Assembly (NCBI RefSeq): GCF_044647545.1 | Contig: NZ_CP172818.1 | Strand: one strand, 5' to 3' | From: Escherichia coli | GTDB lineage: Bacteria > Pseudomonadota > Gammaproteobacteria > Enterobacterales > Enterobacteriaceae | Length of the DNA: 64,000 bases | Translations under genes and position numbers: made by a program | Shown: positions 4,449 to 59,734 of the stretch, one piece after another | Position numbering within the stretch: position 1 is the first letter of the stretch | Layout of the letters: every line of letters begins with the position of its first letter | The notes under the pieces: generated by a model | What the model was told of the DNA's origin: nothing | What the model saw: the letters and a program-made list of their open reading frames with translations, nothing else | Database searches by the model: none

Positions 4449-4678
4449 TCCACACCAGAGCTTTGACGACACCACTCGTTTCAATGGGGGAATTCAGTGG
4501 CATGGTGTAAAGCACAGCAAAATTGCCAATAACGAAACCGATTTTAATGTACTTATCAAAAAGCGGTCACGTTAATCTTTTCATCAATGTCGATTTCTTC
4601 GTAAAGGCTCGCGTTTTTTATGTCAGAGATTGCAAGTTGCTTGTACAGGTCAACTAAATTGATCCATAATTATTTCCG

Positions 4679-4697
4679 TTGGAATCGTGTGCTGCAC
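4679..4697 (+). repeat. 19-nt direct repeat, copy 2 (TTGGAATCGTGTGCTGCAC)
   Basis: 18 of 19 identical to copy at 4430..4448. Confidence 0.6.
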
Positions 4698-4717
4698 AAA
4701 ATTAAAGTTGTAAAGTG

Positions 4718-4750
4718 AAAACCCCCGTTCCTTACCAGTTCGGGGGTTTT
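4718..4750. terminator. Bidirectional stem-loop between shoB/ohsC region and acpS
   Basis: 10-bp perfect stem AAAACCCCCG / CGGGGGTTTT with 13-nt loop, T-rich flanks on both strands; 26 nt past acpS stop. Confidence 0.55.
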
Positions 4751-4775
4751 ACTTTATAAAGAGAACGGTATTTTT

Positions 4776-6638: not shown

Positions 6639-8251
<1,613 letters not shown>

Positions 8252-8450
8252 TCAGCACACGAAACAGACCTGATATACATGGTTCTGCTAACTGCTTCGC
8301 TGCAGTTTCAGTTTACCGGTATATGGGGACCAACGCTGTTTCGTGTGCCGTGGCAACCTGGAGGTGCCAACCTTAAACTTCGGGGGAATATTCTATACAC
8401 AACGACGGGGGATGTCGTTAGCCACGGGAGATTTATCTCATAAATAATTC

Positions 8451-9483: not shown

Positions 9484-11283
<1,800 letters not shown>

Positions 11284-11480
11284 AAAGTATGATTATTGTG
11301 CCTTAATGCCCGGTTAACCAGGCTTTTAGAAGTCGCTGTTCTGAGCTTAACGTCTGTATTAATAGAAACGCCGCATTCTACACTACAACATTGAGGCGAG
11401 GAAATGTTCATACCGTATGGATTGTGGTATCTGGAAACGTCCTCGCATTTGTTATGCAAAATGCAACAAAGCCAGTGAAA

Positions 11481-11960
11481 TCACTGGCTCGCGTCTTCCG
11501 AAGATGTTTCAAATCGCACAAGGCCAGGCGGCAATGCCACGCTTAAGATGATCGGTTGCCATTCAGACCGGGCAGCAAACTTTCGAGAGCAGCCACGTGC
11601 AATCAGGAATCCACCAACGCCACCGAGAATCGCACCGCATAATGCTGCAATATCTGAAGCAAAGAGTAGCTGAAATAGTGAAGCGATGAGGAATAGTCCC
11701 ACCAACGGCGACATATAAACCAGTAATGCGGAGCTAAGCAGGCTGCCTTCGGCGATTCCTAATTCTACTTTTTGCCCCGGCACTAACGGTTCTTCACAGG
11801 GTACGACAATGGTATGCGTGGTTTGCGGGCCAAGTTTATTCAACACGCGGCTACCGCAACCGGCGCGCGAAGCGCAGCTGCTGCATGAGGCTTTAACATC
11901 ACAACTAACCAGCGCCTGCCCGTTTTCCCAGGAGACGACGGTAGCCCACTCTTTGATCAT
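11481..11960 (-). CDS. rseC: Sigma-E regulatory protein RseC
   Basis: Track ORF 159 aa; last gene of the rpoE-rseABC cluster; 4-bp overlap with rseB. Confidence 0.85.
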   Translation of the reverse strand: MIKEWATVVSWENGQALVSCDVKASCSSCASRAGCGSRVLNKLGPQTTHTIVVPCEEPLVPGQKVELGIAEGSLLSSALLVYMSPLVGLFLIASLFQLLFASDIAALCGAILGGVGGFLIARGCSRKFAARSEWQPIILSVALPPGLVRFETSSEDASQ

Positions 11961-12913
11961 TGCGCTGCCCCGAACTTAATATTCTCGGCAATGCGTTTCG
12001 CCGTTTGCGGCGGCAGTTCACCGACAATGGTGATTTCGGCGTTATCACGTACGCTTGTACTGACGGTTCTGCGTCCGGTGCGCAACATCTGATCGGTGCT
12101 CGATGGCGTAGCGCGGTTAACGTTTACCGAGAAGCTGAATAATCCGTCGGAATAGAGACGTGATTCAATAGGCATGTTGTCCATCGTCGGTAGCGGACGT
12201 CGACTACTGGAAACTTCGCTAAAACCCTGTGGCAACCAGGTTGGCGTCCAGCTGAATTTAGCTTTTTCACCTACAGGAACAGAAAGCAACGGCGGCAAAT
12301 TTGCCTTCGCCAGCGTCTGCATACTGCTGCTGATATCCTGATTGACATTAAAAGCAATCACGCGAAATTGTTCCAGCGTTTCACCATCGCGATCAAGGAG
12401 ATCAACCCTCATCGGTAATTTCGATTCGGTGTCCATCCACACGATGTAGCTGTAGCGTGTACCATCTCGGGCAACCACGCGAATAACTTCGCAAAGACGA
12501 TCAGCAATACGCGTGCGCCCGACGGAGATAAAGTCGTAGTAAGGAGAAAGGCGTTTGAAATCGGTATAGATGAGCGATGGCAGAGAATCAACAATGTAAT
12601 CGCCATTAAGCGTGAACGGTTCAAGTCCCGGTTCAAAATAGCTGATCTCATTGCCGCGCTGTACCACTTCCCGGCGCGGGCCATCCATTTGCAACAATTG
12701 TGCAAGAGGACGGTTATCGAGGCGTGCATGTCGATAACGCAGAGACTCAACACCCTGTTTATTGATGCTGATGAATGACAGCTCGTAATTCAGTGACTGA
12801 CTGGCCAGGTTCATCTGCTGTAATAACGCCCCGGACGCGGGAGTGGCCGAGGCGTTAGCAGAGAATAACAGGCTACCTGTCACTAATGACATGGCAAACC
12901 AAAGTTGCTTCAT
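11957..12913 (-). CDS. rseB: Sigma-E regulatory protein RseB (periplasmic)
   Basis: Track ORF 318 aa with N-terminal signal peptide. Confidence 0.88.
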   Translation of the reverse strand: MKQLWFAMSLVTGSLLFSANASATPASGALLQQMNLASQSLNYELSFISINKQGVESLRYRHARLDNRPLAQLLQMDGPRREVVQRGNEISYFEPGLEPFTLNGDYIVDSLPSLIYTDFKRLSPYYDFISVGRTRIADRLCEVIRVVARDGTRYSYIVWMDTESKLPMRVDLLDRDGETLEQFRVIAFNVNQDISSSMQTLAKANLPPLLSVPVGEKAKFSWTPTWLPQGFSEVSSSRRPLPTMDNMPIESRLYSDGLFSFSVNVNRATPSSTDQMLRTGRRTVSTSVRDNAEITIVGELPPQTAKRIAENIKFGAAQ

Positions 12914-19300: not shown

Positions 19301-19402
19301 AACCCCAAACCTATCGAAAATATCGAATTTAGAATGTAAAAACATTCATTTTTTTAAATGTTCCGTGTCGGGTACTGTCTACCAAAACAGAGGAGATAAC
19401 AA

Positions 19403-30047: not shown

Positions 30048-30167
30048 ATGCCTGGCAGTTCCCTACTCTCGCATGGGGAGACCCCACACTACCATCGGCG
30101 CTACGGCGTTTCACTTCTGAGTTCGGCATGGGGTCAGGTGGGACCACCGCGCTAAGGCCGCCAGGCA
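30048..30167 (-). rRNA. rrfG: 5S ribosomal RNA
   Basis: Exactly 120 nt; reverse complement begins TGCCTGGCGGC and ends CAGGCAT. Confidence 0.97.
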
Positions 30168-30259
30168 AATTCTGTTTCATCAGACCGCTTCTGCGTTCTG
30201 ATTTAATCTGTATCAGGCTGAAAATCTTCTCTCTTCCGCCAAAACATCTTCGGCGTTGT

Positions 30260-33163
<2,904 letters not shown>

Positions 33164-33356
33164 TCACAACCCGAAGATGTTTCTTTCGACTCATCATCGT
33201 GTTGCGAAAATTTGAGAGACTCACGAACAACTTTCGTTGTTCAGTGTTTCAATTTTCAGCTTGATCCAGATTTTTAAAGAGCAAATATCTCAAACATCAC
33301 CCGAAGATGAGCTTTGAGATATTAAGGCAGGTGACTTTCACTCACAAACCAGCAAG

Positions 33357-33432
33357 TGGCGTCCCCTAGGGGATTCGAACCCCTGTTACCGCCGTGAAAG
33401 GGCGGTGTCCTGGGCCTCTAGACGAAGGGGAC
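33357..33432 (-). tRNA. gltW: tRNA-Glu (anticodon UUC) in the 16S-23S spacer
   Basis: 76 nt; reverse complement reads GTCCCCTTCGTCTAGAGGCCCAGGACACCGCCCTTTCACGGCGGTAACAGGGGTTCGAATCCCCTAGGGGACGCCA. Confidence 0.97.
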
Positions 33433-33507
33433 GTGTCGCAAGACGCCTTGCTTTTCACTTTCTATCAGACAATCTGTGTGAGCACTTCAAAGTACGCTTC
33501 TTTAAGG

Positions 33508-35049
<1,542 letters not shown>

Positions 35050-35492: not shown

Positions 35493-38066
35493 TTACTGGA
35501 CGGCGACAATCCGGTCTTCATTAACTTCCAGGCGAATCACTTTACCCGGAACCAATTCACCAGACAGTATTTGCTGTGCCAGCGGGTTTTCGATCTGCTG
35601 CTGAATTGCACGTTTCAGAGGACGTGCACCATAGACCGGATCGTAACCGTTCTCGCTCAGCAGTTTCAGCGCCTCGTCAGAAATGTGGATTTCATAACCA
35701 CGTTCTTCCAGACGTTTATACAGACGTTTCAACTGAATCTGCGCAATCGACGCAATGTGCTGTTCACCCAGCGGATGGAAGACCACCACTTCATCGATAC
35801 GGTTAATGAATTCCGGACGGAAGTTATGGCTTACCACACCGAGCACCAGCTCTTTCATGTGCGCATAATCCAGTTCACCGAAGCGTTCCTGAATCAAATC
35901 GGAACCGAGGTTAGAGGTCATAATGACAACCGTATTACGGAAGTCGACCGTTCTCCCCTGCCCGTCAGTCAGACGCCCATCATCCAATACCTGCAACAGA
36001 ATGTTGAAGACATCCGGATGCGCTTTTTCCACTTCATCCAGCAGGATGACGGAATACGGACGACGACGCACCGCTTCGGTCAGGTAGCCACCTTCTTCAT
36101 AACCGACATATCCCGGAGGCGCACCAACCAGACGAGACACCGAGTGTTTCTCCATAAACTCGGACATATCGATACGGACCATCGCCTCGTCGCTATCAAA
36201 CATAAAGTTCGCCAGCGCCTTACAAAGCTCAGTTTTCCCCACACCCGTTGGGCCGAGGAACAGGAATGAACCAATCGGGCGATTTGGATCCGCCAGCCCC
36301 GCACGGCTACGACGAATAGCGTTAGATACCGCATCAACCGCTTCGTTCTGACCAATAACGCGATGGTGCAGTTCTTGCTCCATACGCAGCAGTTTTTCGC
36401 GCTCGCTTTCCATCATGCGAGAAACCGGAATCCCCGTCCAACGCGCCAGCACTTCAGCAATTTCGGCATCGGTCACTTTATTACGCAACAGACGCATAGT
36501 TTTGCCTTCGAGCTGCGTTGCGGCTTCCAGTTGCTTTTCCAGTTCCGGGATTTTGCCGTATTGCAGTTCAGACATCCGCGCCAGGTCACCCACACGGCGA
36601 GCCTGTTCAATAGCGATTTTCGCCTGTTCCAGTTCCGCTTTAATGGTCTGCGTACCAGAAAGCGATGCTTTCTCTGCTTTCCACTCTTCTTCTAACTCGG
36701 AGTACTGACGTTCTTTGTCGCTCAGTTCTTCGTTGAGCATATCCAGACGTTTTTTACTGGCTTCATCAGACTCTTTCATTAACGCCTGTTGTTCCAGTTT
36801 GAGCTGGATGATACGGCGATCGAGTCGGTCGAGTTCTTCTGGTTTTGAGTCAATCTGCATACGAATGCTGGATGCTGCCTCATCGATCAGGTCGATGGCT
36901 TTATCTGGCAGCTGGCGGTCAGCAATGTAGCGATGAGACAACGTCGCCGCTGCAACAATTGCCGGGTCAGTAATTTGCACATGGTGGTGCAGCTCGTAAC
37001 GTTCTTTCAGGCCACGTAGAATCGCAATGGTATCTTCAACAGAAGGCTCGGCAACAAACACTTTCTGGAAACGACGTTCCAGCGCAGCATCTTTTTCGAT
37101 GTACTGGCGATATTCGTCAAGCGTCGTGGCACCTACGCAGTGCAATTCACCACGCGCCAGCGCCGGTTTCAGCATGTTTCCGGCGTCCATTGCGCCATCG
37201 GCTTTACCCGCGCCGACCATGGTATGTAATTCGTCGATAAACAGGATGACGTTGCCTTCCTGTTTGGCAAGATCGTTAAGTACGCCTTTTAAACGTTCTT
37301 CAAACTCACCGCGATATTTCGCCCCAGCCACCAGCGCGCCCATATCCAGCGCCAGTACGCGGCGGCCTTTCAACCCTTCGGGCACTTCGCCGTTGATAAT
37401 ACGCTGCGCCAGACCTTCAACGATGGCAGTCTTACCGACGCCTGGTTCACCAATCAGTACCGGGTTATTTTTAGTACGACGTTGCAGCACCTGAATGGTA
37501 CGGCGAATTTCTTCATCACGACCAATCACCGGATCGAGTTTACCCTGTTCGGCTCGTTCGGTAAGGTCGATGGTATATTTTTTCAAAGCCTGACGTTGGT
37601 CTTCAGCACCTTGATCGTTCACGCTTTCACCTCCACGCATTTGTTCAATCGCTTGAGTAATGTTGGCGGTGGTCGCCCCTGCTGCTTTCAGGATGTCGGC
37701 CAGCGTGCCGCGAGACTCAAGTGCCGCCAGAACGAACAGTTCTGACGAGATAAAGTTATCACCACGTTTTTGCGCCAGCTTGTCGCAAAGATTAAGAACG
37801 CGCACCAGATCCTGTGATGGCTGGACATCACCACCAGTACCTTCAACCTGCGGTAAACGATTTAATGCCTGATTGATATCTGTGCGCAACTGGCCAGCAT
37901 TTATGCCAGCGGATGTTAATAAAGGACTAACCGAACCCCCTTCCTGATTCAGCAGGGCGCTCATTAAATGAAGTGGTTCGATGAATTGGTTGTCGTGCCC
38001 GAGTGCAAGTGATTGGGCATCGGCAAGAGCAAGCTGGAATTTATTAGTAAGACGATCCAGACGCAT
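35493..38066 (-). CDS. clpB: Chaperone ClpB (Hsp100 disaggregase, two AAA+ modules)
   Basis: Track ORF 35493..38078; ATG at 38066 with GGAGG upstream gives 857 aa starting [14 protein letters not shown]; Walker A GEPGVGKT and GPTGVGKT. Confidence 0.95.
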
Positions 38067-38105
38067 AACTCCTCCCATAACGGATCAAAGTTGCTACTGG
38101 AGATT

Positions 38106-38133
38106 AAATGAGGTCATCCCTCAATTATTCAAG
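38106..38133 (-). promoter_or_regulatory. Sigma-32 (heat-shock) type promoter for clpB
   Basis: Minus strand CTTGAA, 13-nt spacer, CCTCATTT; resembles sigma-32 consensus CTTGAAA / CCCCATNT. Confidence 0.5.
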
Positions 38134-38195
38134 GTTATTGACCAGATTAATGTGAAAAGAAAATCACGCGTACCGGATCGTCTTGATTCTTTAGG

Positions 38196-41436: not shown

Positions 41437-41491
41437 TTGACAGCGTGAAAACAGTACGGGTACTGTACTAAAGTCACTTAAGGAAACAAAC

Positions 41492-41539
41492 ATGAAACAC
41501 ACACCGTTTTTCTTCGCATTCTTTTTTACCTTCCCCTGA
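41492..41539 (+). CDS. pheL: pheA leader peptide (Phe-rich, 15 aa)
   Basis: Hand translation gives MKHTPFFFAFFFTFP then stop; seven Phe codons; absent from ORF track. Confidence 0.9.
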   Translation: MKHTPFFFAFFFTFP

Positions 41540-41585
41540 ATGGGAGGCGTTTCGTCGTGTGAAACAGAATGCGAAGACGAACAAT

Positions 41586-41615
41586 AAGGCCTCCCAAATC
41601 GGGGGGCCTTTTTTA
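41586..41615 (+). promoter_or_regulatory. pheA attenuator terminator hairpin
   Basis: Stem GGCCTCCC / GGGGGGCC (one G-U pair) followed by TTTTTTT, between pheL and pheA. Confidence 0.75.
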
Positions 41616-41637
41616 TTGATAACAAAAAGGCAACACT

Positions 41638-54609: not shown

Positions 54610-55488
54610 ATGAATAATCATTTCAAGTGTATTGGCATTGTGGGACACCCACGGCACCCCACTGCACTGACAACACATGAAATGCTCTACCGCTGGCTGT
54701 GCGCAAAAGGTTACGAGGTCATCGTTGAGCAACAAATCGCTCACGAACTGCAACTGAAGAATGTGAAAACTGGCACGCTCGCGGAGATTGGGCAACTGGC
54801 AGATCTCGCGGTAGTTGTTGGTGGCGACGGTAATATGCTGGGCGCGGCGCGCACGCTCGCCCGCTACGATATTAAAGTTATTGGAATCAACCGTGGCAAC
54901 CTGGGTTTCCTGACTGACCTTGATCCCGATAACGCCCAGCAACAATTAGCCGATGTGCTGGAAGGCCACTACATCAGCGAGAAACGTTTTTTGCTGGAAG
55001 CGCAAGTCTGTCAGCAAGATTGCCAGAAACGCATCAGCACGGCGATTAACGAAGTGGTACTTCATCCTGGCAAAGTGGCGCATATGATTGAGTTCGAAGT
55101 GTATATCGACGAGATCTTTGCGTTTTCGCAGCGTTCCGATGGACTGATTATTTCGACGCCAACAGGCTCCACCGCCTATTCCCTCTCTGCGGGCGGTCCT
55201 ATTCTGACACCCTCTCTGGATGCGATTACCCTGGTGCCCATGTTCCCGCATACGTTGTCAGCACGACCACTGGTCATAAACAGCAGCAGCACGATCCGTC
55301 TGCGTTTTTCGCATCGCCGTAACGACCTGGAAATCAGTTGCGACAGCCAGATAGCACTGCCGATTCAGGAAGGTGAAGATGTCCTGATTCGTCGCTGTGA
55401 TTACCATCTGAATCTTATTCATCCGAAAGATTACAGTTATTTCAATACATTAAGCACCAAGCTCGGCTGGTCAAAAAAATTATTCTAA
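54610..55488 (+). CDS. nadK: NAD kinase
   Basis: Track ORF 292 aa; GGDGN motif. Confidence 0.95.
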
Positions 55489-55505
55489 TTTTACGCCAGC
55501 CTCTT

Positions 55506-55525
55506 TACTGTATATAAAACCAGTT
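55506..55525 (+). promoter_or_regulatory. LexA (SOS) box 1 upstream of recN
   Basis: TACTGTATATAAAACCAGTT, CTG-N10-CAG. Confidence 0.65.
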
Positions 55526-55527
55526 TA

Positions 55528-55547
55528 TACTGTACACAATAACAGTA
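55528..55547 (+). promoter_or_regulatory. LexA (SOS) box 2 upstream of recN
   Basis: TACTGTACACAATAACAGTA, CTG-N10-CAG; a weaker third half-site follows at about 55548..55563. Confidence 0.65.
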
Positions 55548-55573
55548 ATGGTTTTTCATACAGGAAAACAACT

Positions 55574-57235
55574 ATGTTGGCACAACTGACCATCAGCAAC
55601 TTTGCTATCGTTCGTGAGCTTGAGATTGATTTTCATAGCGGCATGACCGTAATAACTGGCGAGACCGGCGCGGGTAAATCTATTGCAATAGATGCCCTCT
55701 GTCTTTGTCTCGGTGGTCGCGCTGAAGCCGACATGGTGCGTACCGGCGCTGCTCGCGCTGACCTGTGCGCCCGTTTTTCTCTGAAAGATACGCCAGCGGC
55801 CCTGCGCTGGCTGGAAGAAAACCAGCTTGAAGACGGGCATGAATGTTTGCTTCGTCGCGTAATCAGCAGCGATGGTCGCTCCCGTGGTTTTATCAACGGT
55901 ACAGCGGTTCCTCTTTCACAACTGCGCGAACTGGGTCAGTTGCTGATTCAGATCCATGGTCAGCACGCTCATCAGTTACTCACCAAACCCGAGCACCAAA
56001 AATTCCTGCTTGATGGCTATGCCAATGAAACCTCTCTACTCCAGGAAATGACCGCACGTTATCAGTTGTGGCATCAAAGCTGCCGTGACCTCGCGCATCA
56101 TCAACAGTTAAGTCAGGAACGCGCCGCCCGTGCAGAACTGCTGCAATACCAATTAAAAGAACTTAACGAATTTAATCCGCAGCCCGGAGAGTTTGAGCAA
56201 ATCGACGAAGAGTACAAACGTCTGGCGAACAGCGGTCAATTGCTGACTACTAGCCAGAATGCATTGGCAGTAATGGCCGACGGTGAAGACGCAAACCTGC
56301 AAAGTCAGCTTTACACGGCTAAACAACTGGTGAGCGAATTGATTGGCATGGACAGCAAACTGTCCGGCGTACTTGATATGCTGGAAGAAGCTACCATCCA
56401 GATTGCTGAAGCCAGCGATGAACTGCGCCACTACTGCGATCGTCTGGATCTCGATCCCAACCGACTGTTTGAACTTGAACAGCGCATCTCAAGACAGATT
56501 TCGCTGGCACGTAAACATCACGTCAGCCCTGAGGCATTGCCACAGTATTACCAGTCGCTACTGGAAGAACAGCAGCAACTGGACGATCAGGCCGACTCAC
56601 AAGAAACGCTCGCGCTGGCGGTAACGAAACATCATCAGCAGGCACTGGAAACGGCGCGCGCGTTACACCAGCAACGCCAGCACTATGCAGAAGAACTTGC
56701 ACAGCTGATCACCGACAGTATGCATGCACTCTCTATGCCGCATGGGCAGTTTACGATCGATGTTAAATTTGACGAGCATCACCTGGGCGCTGACGGCGCT
56801 GATCGTATTGAGTTTCGGGTAACCACCAACCCAGGTCAGCCAATGCAGCCTATTGCCAAAGTCGCATCCGGTGGTGAGTTGTCCCGCATCGCATTGGCAA
56901 TTCAGGTCATCACGGCGCGTAAAATGGAAACCCCGGCACTGATTTTTGATGAAGTGGATGTAGGGATTAGCGGCCCAACAGCGGCAGTTGTCGGCAAACT
57001 GCTGCGTCAACTTGGCGAATCAACTCAGGTGATGTGTGTTACCCACCTGCCACAAGTCGCGGGATGTGGTCATCAACACTATTTTGTCAGCAAAGAAACC
57101 GATGGTGCGATGACAGAAACGCACATGCAATCCCTGGATAAAAAAGCGCGGTTACAAGAGCTGGCACGCCTGCTTGGTGGCAGTGAAGTCACACGTAACA
57201 CACTGGCGAATGCGAAAGAACTACTTGCGGCGTAA
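55574..57235 (+). CDS. recN: DNA repair protein RecN (SMC-like ATPase)
   Basis: Track ORF 553 aa; Walker A GETGAGKS. Confidence 0.95.
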
Positions 57236-59371: not shown

Positions 59372-59734
59372 GGGGCTGATTCTGGATTCGACGGGATTTG
59401 CGAAACCCAAGGTGCATGCCGAGGGGCGGTTGGCCTCGTAAAAAGCCGCAAAAAATAGTCGCAAACGACGAAAACTACGCTTTAGCAGCTTAATAACCTG
59501 CTTAGAGCCCTCTCTCCCTAGCCTCCGCTCTTAGGACGGGGATCAAGAGAGGTCAAACCCAAAAGAGATCGCGTGGAAGCCCTGCCTGGGGTTGAAGCGT
59601 TAAAACTTAATCAGGCTAGTTTGTTAGTGGCGTGTCCGTCCGCAGCTGGCAAGCGAATGTAAAGACTGACTAAGCATGTAGTACCGAGGACGTAGGAATT
59701 TCGGACGCGGGTTCAACTCCCGCCAGCTCCACCA
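59372..59734 (+). ncRNA. ssrA: Transfer-messenger RNA (tmRNA)
   Basis: 363 nt from GGGGCTGATTCTGGATTCGACGGG to GGGTTCAACTCCCGCCAGCTCCACCA; internal frame GCAAACGACGAAAACTACGCTTTAGCAGCTTAA encodes tag ANDENYALAA; TATACT -10-like hexamer upstream. Confidence 0.97.

Follow-up and report, generated by a model that had tools for sequence, protein, structure and literature searches.

How is recN controlled from the short spacer that separates it from nadK? An earlier note on this DNA had described two full CTG-N10-CAG boxes and a third half-match packed into the 60 bp before the recN start, and took them for LexA boxes that imply tight SOS repression. The analysis reported here covered the window, meaning the whole 64,000-nucleotide stretch of DNA. 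The region is very probably the LexA (SOS) operator-promoter of Escherichia coli recN, in which one sigma-70 promoter lies under three sites for LexA dimers, and nothing was found that contradicts this overall reading.

The setting is that of an E. coli chromosome. With 321 bp spanning the operator as query, many E. coli strains match at 100% identity, and 5425 of 5426 complete genomes carry the sequence; judged by sequence, the source of the window is the E. coli chromosome. (One of the 5426 genomes is without a match, and one of the 5427 matching places is in a record labelled plasmid.) The RefSeq gene order is grpE (minus strand), nadK, recN, bamE, yfjF, ratA, smpB, and NCBIfam also confirms the NadK, BamE, and GrpE neighbours. 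The product of the gene 3' of the boxes matches the RecN model NF008121 over residues 1-553 of 553 with 1067 bits (cutoff 418), an equivalog-level match, and TIGR00634 with 575 bits (cutoff 408). Together with the RefSeq annotation, these matches identify the gene as recN, as the earlier note had named it, coding for a predicted SMC-like DNA repair ATPase. The spacer between nadK and recN (55489-55573) is 85 bp long with 32% G+C, and reads ...cctctTTACTgtatataaaaccagttTATACTgtacacaataacagtaatggtttttcatacAGGAaaacaactATG. A terminator scan of 55300-55700 returned no terminator-like site between the two genes. Transcripts of nadK could thus conceivably extend into recN, a path that three LexA dimers, if bound, would obstruct. 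Coordinates are collected in Table 1. The Rfam matches elsewhere in the window are those to be expected near recN in E. coli.

Table 1. Features of the nadK-recN spacer, its flanking genes, and the non-coding RNA matches of the window.
Feature	Position	Strand	Remarks
LexA box 1	55506-55525	n/a	TACTGTATATAAAACCAGTT; strongest site; over the -35 hexamer and promoter spacer
LexA box 2	55528-55547	n/a	TACTGTACACAATAACAGTA; over the -10 hexamer and putative transcription start
LexA box 3 (degenerate)	55546-55565	n/a	TAATGGTTTTTCATACAGGA; ATG replaces CTG; in the 5' UTR
-35 hexamer TTTACT	55504-55509	+	sigma-70-like match
-10 hexamer TATACT	55526-55531	+	sigma-70-like match, 16-bp spacer
Transcription start (approximate)	55538	+	inferred from the -10 position, about 7 nt beyond the hexamer
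Shine-Dalgarno AGGA	55562-55565	+	direct reading; 8 nt before the ATG, within the right arm of box 3
recN CDS	55574-57235	+	553 aa; ORF listing, RefSeq annotation, NCBIfam
nadK	54610-55488	+	292-aa ORF, co-directional, 5' of recN; NF002893, 566 bits
rRNA operon (5S, 23S, a tRNA, 16S)	30050-35049	-	Rfam, above gathering threshold
tmRNA (ssrA)	59372-59734	+	Rfam, above gathering threshold
Phe leader	41491-41616	+	Rfam, above gathering threshold
rncO	8167-8381	-	Rfam, above gathering threshold
RyfD	38047-38185	-	Rfam, above gathering threshold
ohsC	4678-4755	+	Rfam, above gathering threshold
AsrC	11165-11996	+	Rfam, above gathering threshold

The LexA core rule, CTG-N10-CAG, is followed exactly at 55508-55523 (CTGTATATAAAACCAG) and at 55530-55545 (CTGTACACAATAACAG); these are the two full boxes of the earlier note, which lie within the stretch it had given (55506-55563). 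Box 1 has the core CTGT-N8-CCAG, which satisfies the rule, and box 2 the perfect core CTGT-N8-ACAG. Box 3 is the half-match: its core at 55548-55563 reads ATG-N10-CAG (ATGG-N8-ACAG), with the right half intact and the left half failing, and it follows the rule by half. Between the end of each box and the recN ATG (55574) lie 48, 26, and 8 bp, respectively. Their centres are 22 bp (boxes 1 and 2) and 18 bp (boxes 2 and 3) apart, and boxes 2 and 3 have 2 bp in common. Together they do fill a block of 60 bp (55506-55565), but not the 60 bp right before the start of recN, as had been written; the block stops 8 bp short of the ATG.

The promoter is the sole sigma-70-like match in 55300-55700, with a score of 9/12 and a 16-bp spacer. 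Boxes 1 and 2 show the promoter overlap that characterizes LexA boxes, lying across the -35 and -10 hexamers, respectively. The putative start site agrees with the recN leader, which we take to be about 36 nt long. Box 3 would then occupy about +9 to +28 of this leader, between the start site and the ATG.

Counting bare CTG-N10-CAG matches proved uninformative as a test of the boxes. The window contains 30, mostly inside genes, where shuffles predict 14.25; the excess arises because CTG and CAG are common codons. Matrix scoring was used instead. The heterology index (HI) was calculated from a symmetrised Berg-von Hippel matrix, ln[(n_cons+0.5)/(n_obs+0.5)], trained on 17 E. coli LexA boxes from Table 4 of PMC3009722, with recN excluded. 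On this matrix the HI is 4.2 for box 1, 9.1 for box 2, and 11.7 for box 3, absolute values that vary with the training set. Published values for the three recN boxes are reportedly about 5.2, 9.4, and 11.5. A listing in PMC11228462, with the value taken from Courcelle et al. 2001, gives recN an HI of 3.5. The earlier note had proposed just this scoring, and the high HI at every site that it named as a refutation was not seen: all three boxes lie under the working threshold of HI<15 quoted in PMC11002266. Among the 63,981 20-mers of the window, boxes 1, 2, and 3 rank first, second, and third. The next best HI is 12.8, and the other 28 CTG-N10-CAG matches in the window range from 12.8 to 29.6. 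A first-order Markov null of the same composition gives a mean of 0.2 sites with HI<=11.8 per 64 kb, and three sites as good never arose together when the 85-bp spacer was shuffled 20,000 times.

The fourth-best match to the LexA matrix lies elsewhere in the window, at 19373-19392 (TACTGTCTACCAAAACAGAG), with a perfect CTGT-N8-ACAG core and an HI of 12.8. An ORF for an eamB/yfiK-like cysteine exporter begins immediately downstream, at a GTG (19404), and the match overlaps the GAGGAG ribosome-binding site of this ORF. A literature search for a LexA link to eamB/yfiK found none.

The arrangement suggests a simple scheme. In uninduced cells, LexA at box 1 (strong) would occlude the -35 hexamer and the promoter spacer, and LexA at box 2 (medium) would occlude the -10 hexamer and the start site, so that RNA polymerase is excluded. 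Box 3 (weak) would probably add a further dimer or a roadblock; we infer this step and the occupancy of box 3, as also the exact start site, any cooperativity between dimers, and any role as a roadblock against nadK read-through. Upon DNA damage, RecA-ssDNA filaments would stimulate LexA self-cleavage, the operators would empty, and a fairly good promoter would then drive strong RecN synthesis.

Published observations bear on several of these steps. LexA autocleavage is stimulated by RecA-ssDNA filaments (PMC11228462). Expression of recN is induced 19-fold by AZT and shows a 36-fold dependence on lexA (PMC11228462, Table 1); after ciprofloxacin, the log2 fold change is 4.6 for the transcript and 6.8 for the protein (PMC11002266). 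RecN expression is restricted to damaged cells, and the protein is degraded by ClpXP (PMC10714372). The number of boxes does not by itself prove tight repression, which the earlier note had read from it; it is these induction and lexA-dependence measurements that support the claim.

Within E. coli, the operator hardly varies. Of 5426 E. coli records, 5357 match the 131 bp at 55470-55600 with an identity of 99% or more. Four divergent strains from along this ranking (a K-12-like laboratory strain, O157:H7, KV7, and a seawater isolate) were aligned, and none has a change in any box, in either promoter hexamer, or in the Shine-Dalgarno sequence. Single-nucleotide differences among the aligned strains are confined to 55493 and 55495, on the 5' side of the -35 hexamer, and 55570, in the gap between box 3 and the ATG.

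Position 55570 is A in the window, and G in the K-12-like strain, O157:H7, KV7, MB07152, and most strains. The variant is thus outside every box, in the spacer that separates the Shine-Dalgarno sequence from the ATG. Among evenly spread E. coli records, about two-thirds differ from the 131-bp query by one mismatch, presumably the one at 55570.

Conservation between species was assessed by scanning one genome per species for a single CTGT-N9-CAG located 105-135 nt upstream of the back-translated codons for the RecN P-loop (GETGAGK). This pattern left the second box and box 3 unconstrained. The scan returned at least 120 recN loci, all selected for at least one CTGT-N9-CAG, so the frequency of recN genes without LexA control cannot be read off from them. 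Among the matches listed, alignment of the protein to E. coli RecN begins at residue 1 or 2 for 120 of 120 loci, and the recN ATG precedes the P-loop codons by 84 nt at all 30 loci examined. Counted from the P-loop codons, the E. coli boxes lie at -152, -130, and -112.

Boxes at -152 and -130 recur across the Enterobacterales: Citrobacter, Enterobacter, Klebsiella, Superficieibacter, Pseudescherichia, Yersinia, Rahnella, Brenneria, Photorhabdus, Proteus, Providencia, Arsenophonus, and E. albertii. Vibrio, Salinivibrio, Aeromonas, and some Shewanella have a pair of boxes with the 22-bp spacing, in a register close to that of E. coli. In Pseudoalteromonas the two boxes are separated by 23-24 bp; Pseudomonas mostly has a single box, and some Shewanella have three strong ones. 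Boxes 1 and 2 share a register in Enterobacterales, Vibrio, and Aeromonas, which is the conservation that characterizes LexA boxes.

Sites with HI<=12.5 were counted at the 120 loci among the matches listed: none at 9 loci; one at 52; two at 47; and three at 12. At least two such sites are present at 59 of these 120 loci. The nine loci without a site comprise eight from outside the Gammaproteobacteria (e.g., Brevundimonas, Shimia, an Erythrobacter MAG, and Victivallales) and one from Halomonas. They matched the pattern by chance, and serve as an internal negative control.

Base by base, the 30 loci in the E. coli register (among the matches listed) give 1.75 bits per column for box 1, 1.35 for box 2, and 1.22 for box 3; the 30-nt flank upstream of box 1 gives 0.65. 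Box 2 has arms of 1.69 bits and a centre of 0.84 across these loci, the profile expected of a LexA site. Also in the orthologues among the matches listed, CTTTACT at the -35 region is invariant and TATACT at -10 is conserved.

At two Shewanella loci (L014 and L085), the boxes lie about 167, 145, and 125 nt upstream of the P-loop codons, spaced 22 and 20 bp, with HI values of 4.3-7.0. This triple operator, in which the third box has the full consensus, is stronger than that of E. coli.

Could the boxes be chance coincidences of CTG and CAG in an AT-rich spacer? The abundance of bare CTG-N10-CAG matches in the window would allow it, but the matrix ranks, the shuffled spacers, the retention of the boxes across orders, and the published LexA dependence (PMC11228462) leave the idea hardly credible; it is already refuted by the scores and by cross-species conservation. 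A different kind of alternative would add a second regulator to LexA: DnaA, co-repressing recN from a DnaA box overlapping one of the LexA boxes, as proposed in PMC6015884. In that study, recN-lacZ expression is 2- to 3-fold higher in dnaA(A345S) cells, and an overlapping DnaA box is reported. DnaA-like 9-mers are indeed present, at 55509-55517 (minus strand, one mismatch), and at 55530-55538 and 55552-55560 (both plus strand, two mismatches each). None of these is an exact DnaA box, however, and matches to TTATNCACA with up to two mismatches occur in the window at about the chance rate (588, compared with 543 expected). Moreover, the reported effect is small, and direct binding of DnaA to recN is absent from the account in the available part of PMC6015884. 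DnaA co-repression appears to be a minor rival that gains no support from the sequence alone, and it is quite unlikely to operate here.

The more searching question concerns box 3. Only boxes 1 and 2 might be operators, and box 3 a segment of the 5' UTR and ribosome-binding region that resembles a LexA half-site and is kept for reasons of translation or mRNA. The left half of box 3 lacks the C of CTG, and its right arm, ACAGGA, includes the Shine-Dalgarno sequence; because of this overlap, conservation of ACAGG could be driven by translation. Moreover, the centre of box 3, GTTTTTCAT, is conserved among Enterobacteriaceae (1.06 bits per column, compared with 0.84 for the centre of box 2), beyond what the centre of a LexA site usually needs. 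Scores at this position also vary between species: HI values of 9.7-12.2 are seen for E. coli, E. albertii, a single Enterobacter, Photorhabdus, and several Vibrio, and values of about 14.5 (14-15) for most other Enterobacteriaceae. A single base that box 3 has in common with box 2 (CAGTA versus CAGTT) accounts for the gap between E. coli and these other Enterobacteriaceae. In Salmonella, FIMO missed the corresponding box (PMC8072944). Set against all this is the geometry. In 24 distinct orthologous leaders among the matches listed, drawn from three orders, neither the TG at box positions 4-5 nor the ACAGG at positions 15-19 varies, and the two keep LexA-box spacing, with TG fixed exactly 10 nt upstream of CAG. 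The base preceding TG is not fixed: E. coli has A, Vibrio T, Photorhabdus G, and Rahnella C, and in Rahnella the site is a full CTGT-N8-ACAG core. In the window, box 3 scores third-best, compared with about 0.2 such sites per 64 kb under the null, and its HI of 11.7 falls near the weak end of accepted sites. Three boxes are also counted for recN in the literature (PMC8072944; PMC3323433; PMC10714372). Together, these observations make it unlikely that boxes 1 and 2 are the only operators. Most likely, box 3 is a true, if weak, LexA site, and the retention of LexA-box geometry across three orders, despite the poor score, argues that it is functional.

An RNA structure might account for the conservation of the box 3 region in another way, through a leader hairpin (GGUUUUUC/GGAAAAC) that sequesters the Shine-Dalgarno sequence. 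A 7-bp stem of this kind is present in the minimum-free-energy fold of 55538-55600, but the fold has a z-score of only -0.85, with 40 of 200 shuffles folding at least as well, and RNAalifold returned no conserved pair among the 24 orthologous leaders (among the matches listed). The hairpin was rejected on these grounds and is very improbable, and with it goes the conserved RNA structure that could have explained box 3 without LexA. It is doubtful, although conceivable, that box 3 is more than one extra operator and has a dual use, with a LexA site and the ribosome-binding site combined into one element of the transcribed leader. If so, its conservation in Enterobacterales, Vibrionales, and Aeromonas, including a central T-run under tighter constraint than the centre of box 2, would reflect a distinct role for box 3. 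One option would be a LexA roadblock against nadK read-through, no terminator-like site intervening; another would be repression coupled to the initiation of translation.

(A 13-codon upstream ORF beginning at the ATG of box 3, position 55548, was dismissed by inspection: its start codon varies in orthologues, and no Shine-Dalgarno sequence precedes it.)

The triple SOS operator of recN is already known and ordinary, a textbook regulatory region that has been in the literature since 1987-2000. The promoter/operator of E. coli K-12 recN was reportedly described by Rostas et al. in 1987 (NAR 15:5041), and Fernandez de Henestrosa et al. in 2000 and Courcelle et al. in 2001 are said to have counted three recN boxes. 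A modest comparative interest attaches to the degenerate third site, which retains LexA-box geometry across three orders. The K-12 operator occupies the same locus with the same flanking genes, and from the nadK stop codon to the recN ATG the K-12-like strain and the window have a single difference, at 55570, outside all boxes. The sequence of box 1 is that of the recN box in Table 4 of PMC3009722 and in Table S1 of PMC6015884, and the same Table S1 lists box 2 as a recN LexA box.

Salmonella enterica recN, which is induced 39-fold, also has three boxes, placed 8, 26, and 48 bp from the ATG as in the E. coli window (PMC8072944). The Salmonella boxes have other sequences, with HI values of 12.97, 7.72, and 8.82 by that study's own matrix. 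Box 1 is clearly the strongest in E. coli, unlike in Salmonella.

Other multi-operator SOS promoters likewise pack several LexA sites over one promoter. That of lexA carries two LexA boxes. Several LexA sites are described for uvrB in PMC6015884, and multiple boxes for the recN promoter of Vibrio, which has served in one Vibrio strain as a fluorescent SOS reporter (bioRxiv 10.1101/565556). Packed LexA sites have been associated with heavy or graded regulation (PMC3323433; bioRxiv 10.1101/565556). The recN promoter differs from these other promoters in the spacing and number of its sites, and in placing the third of them in the leader, over the ribosome-binding site.
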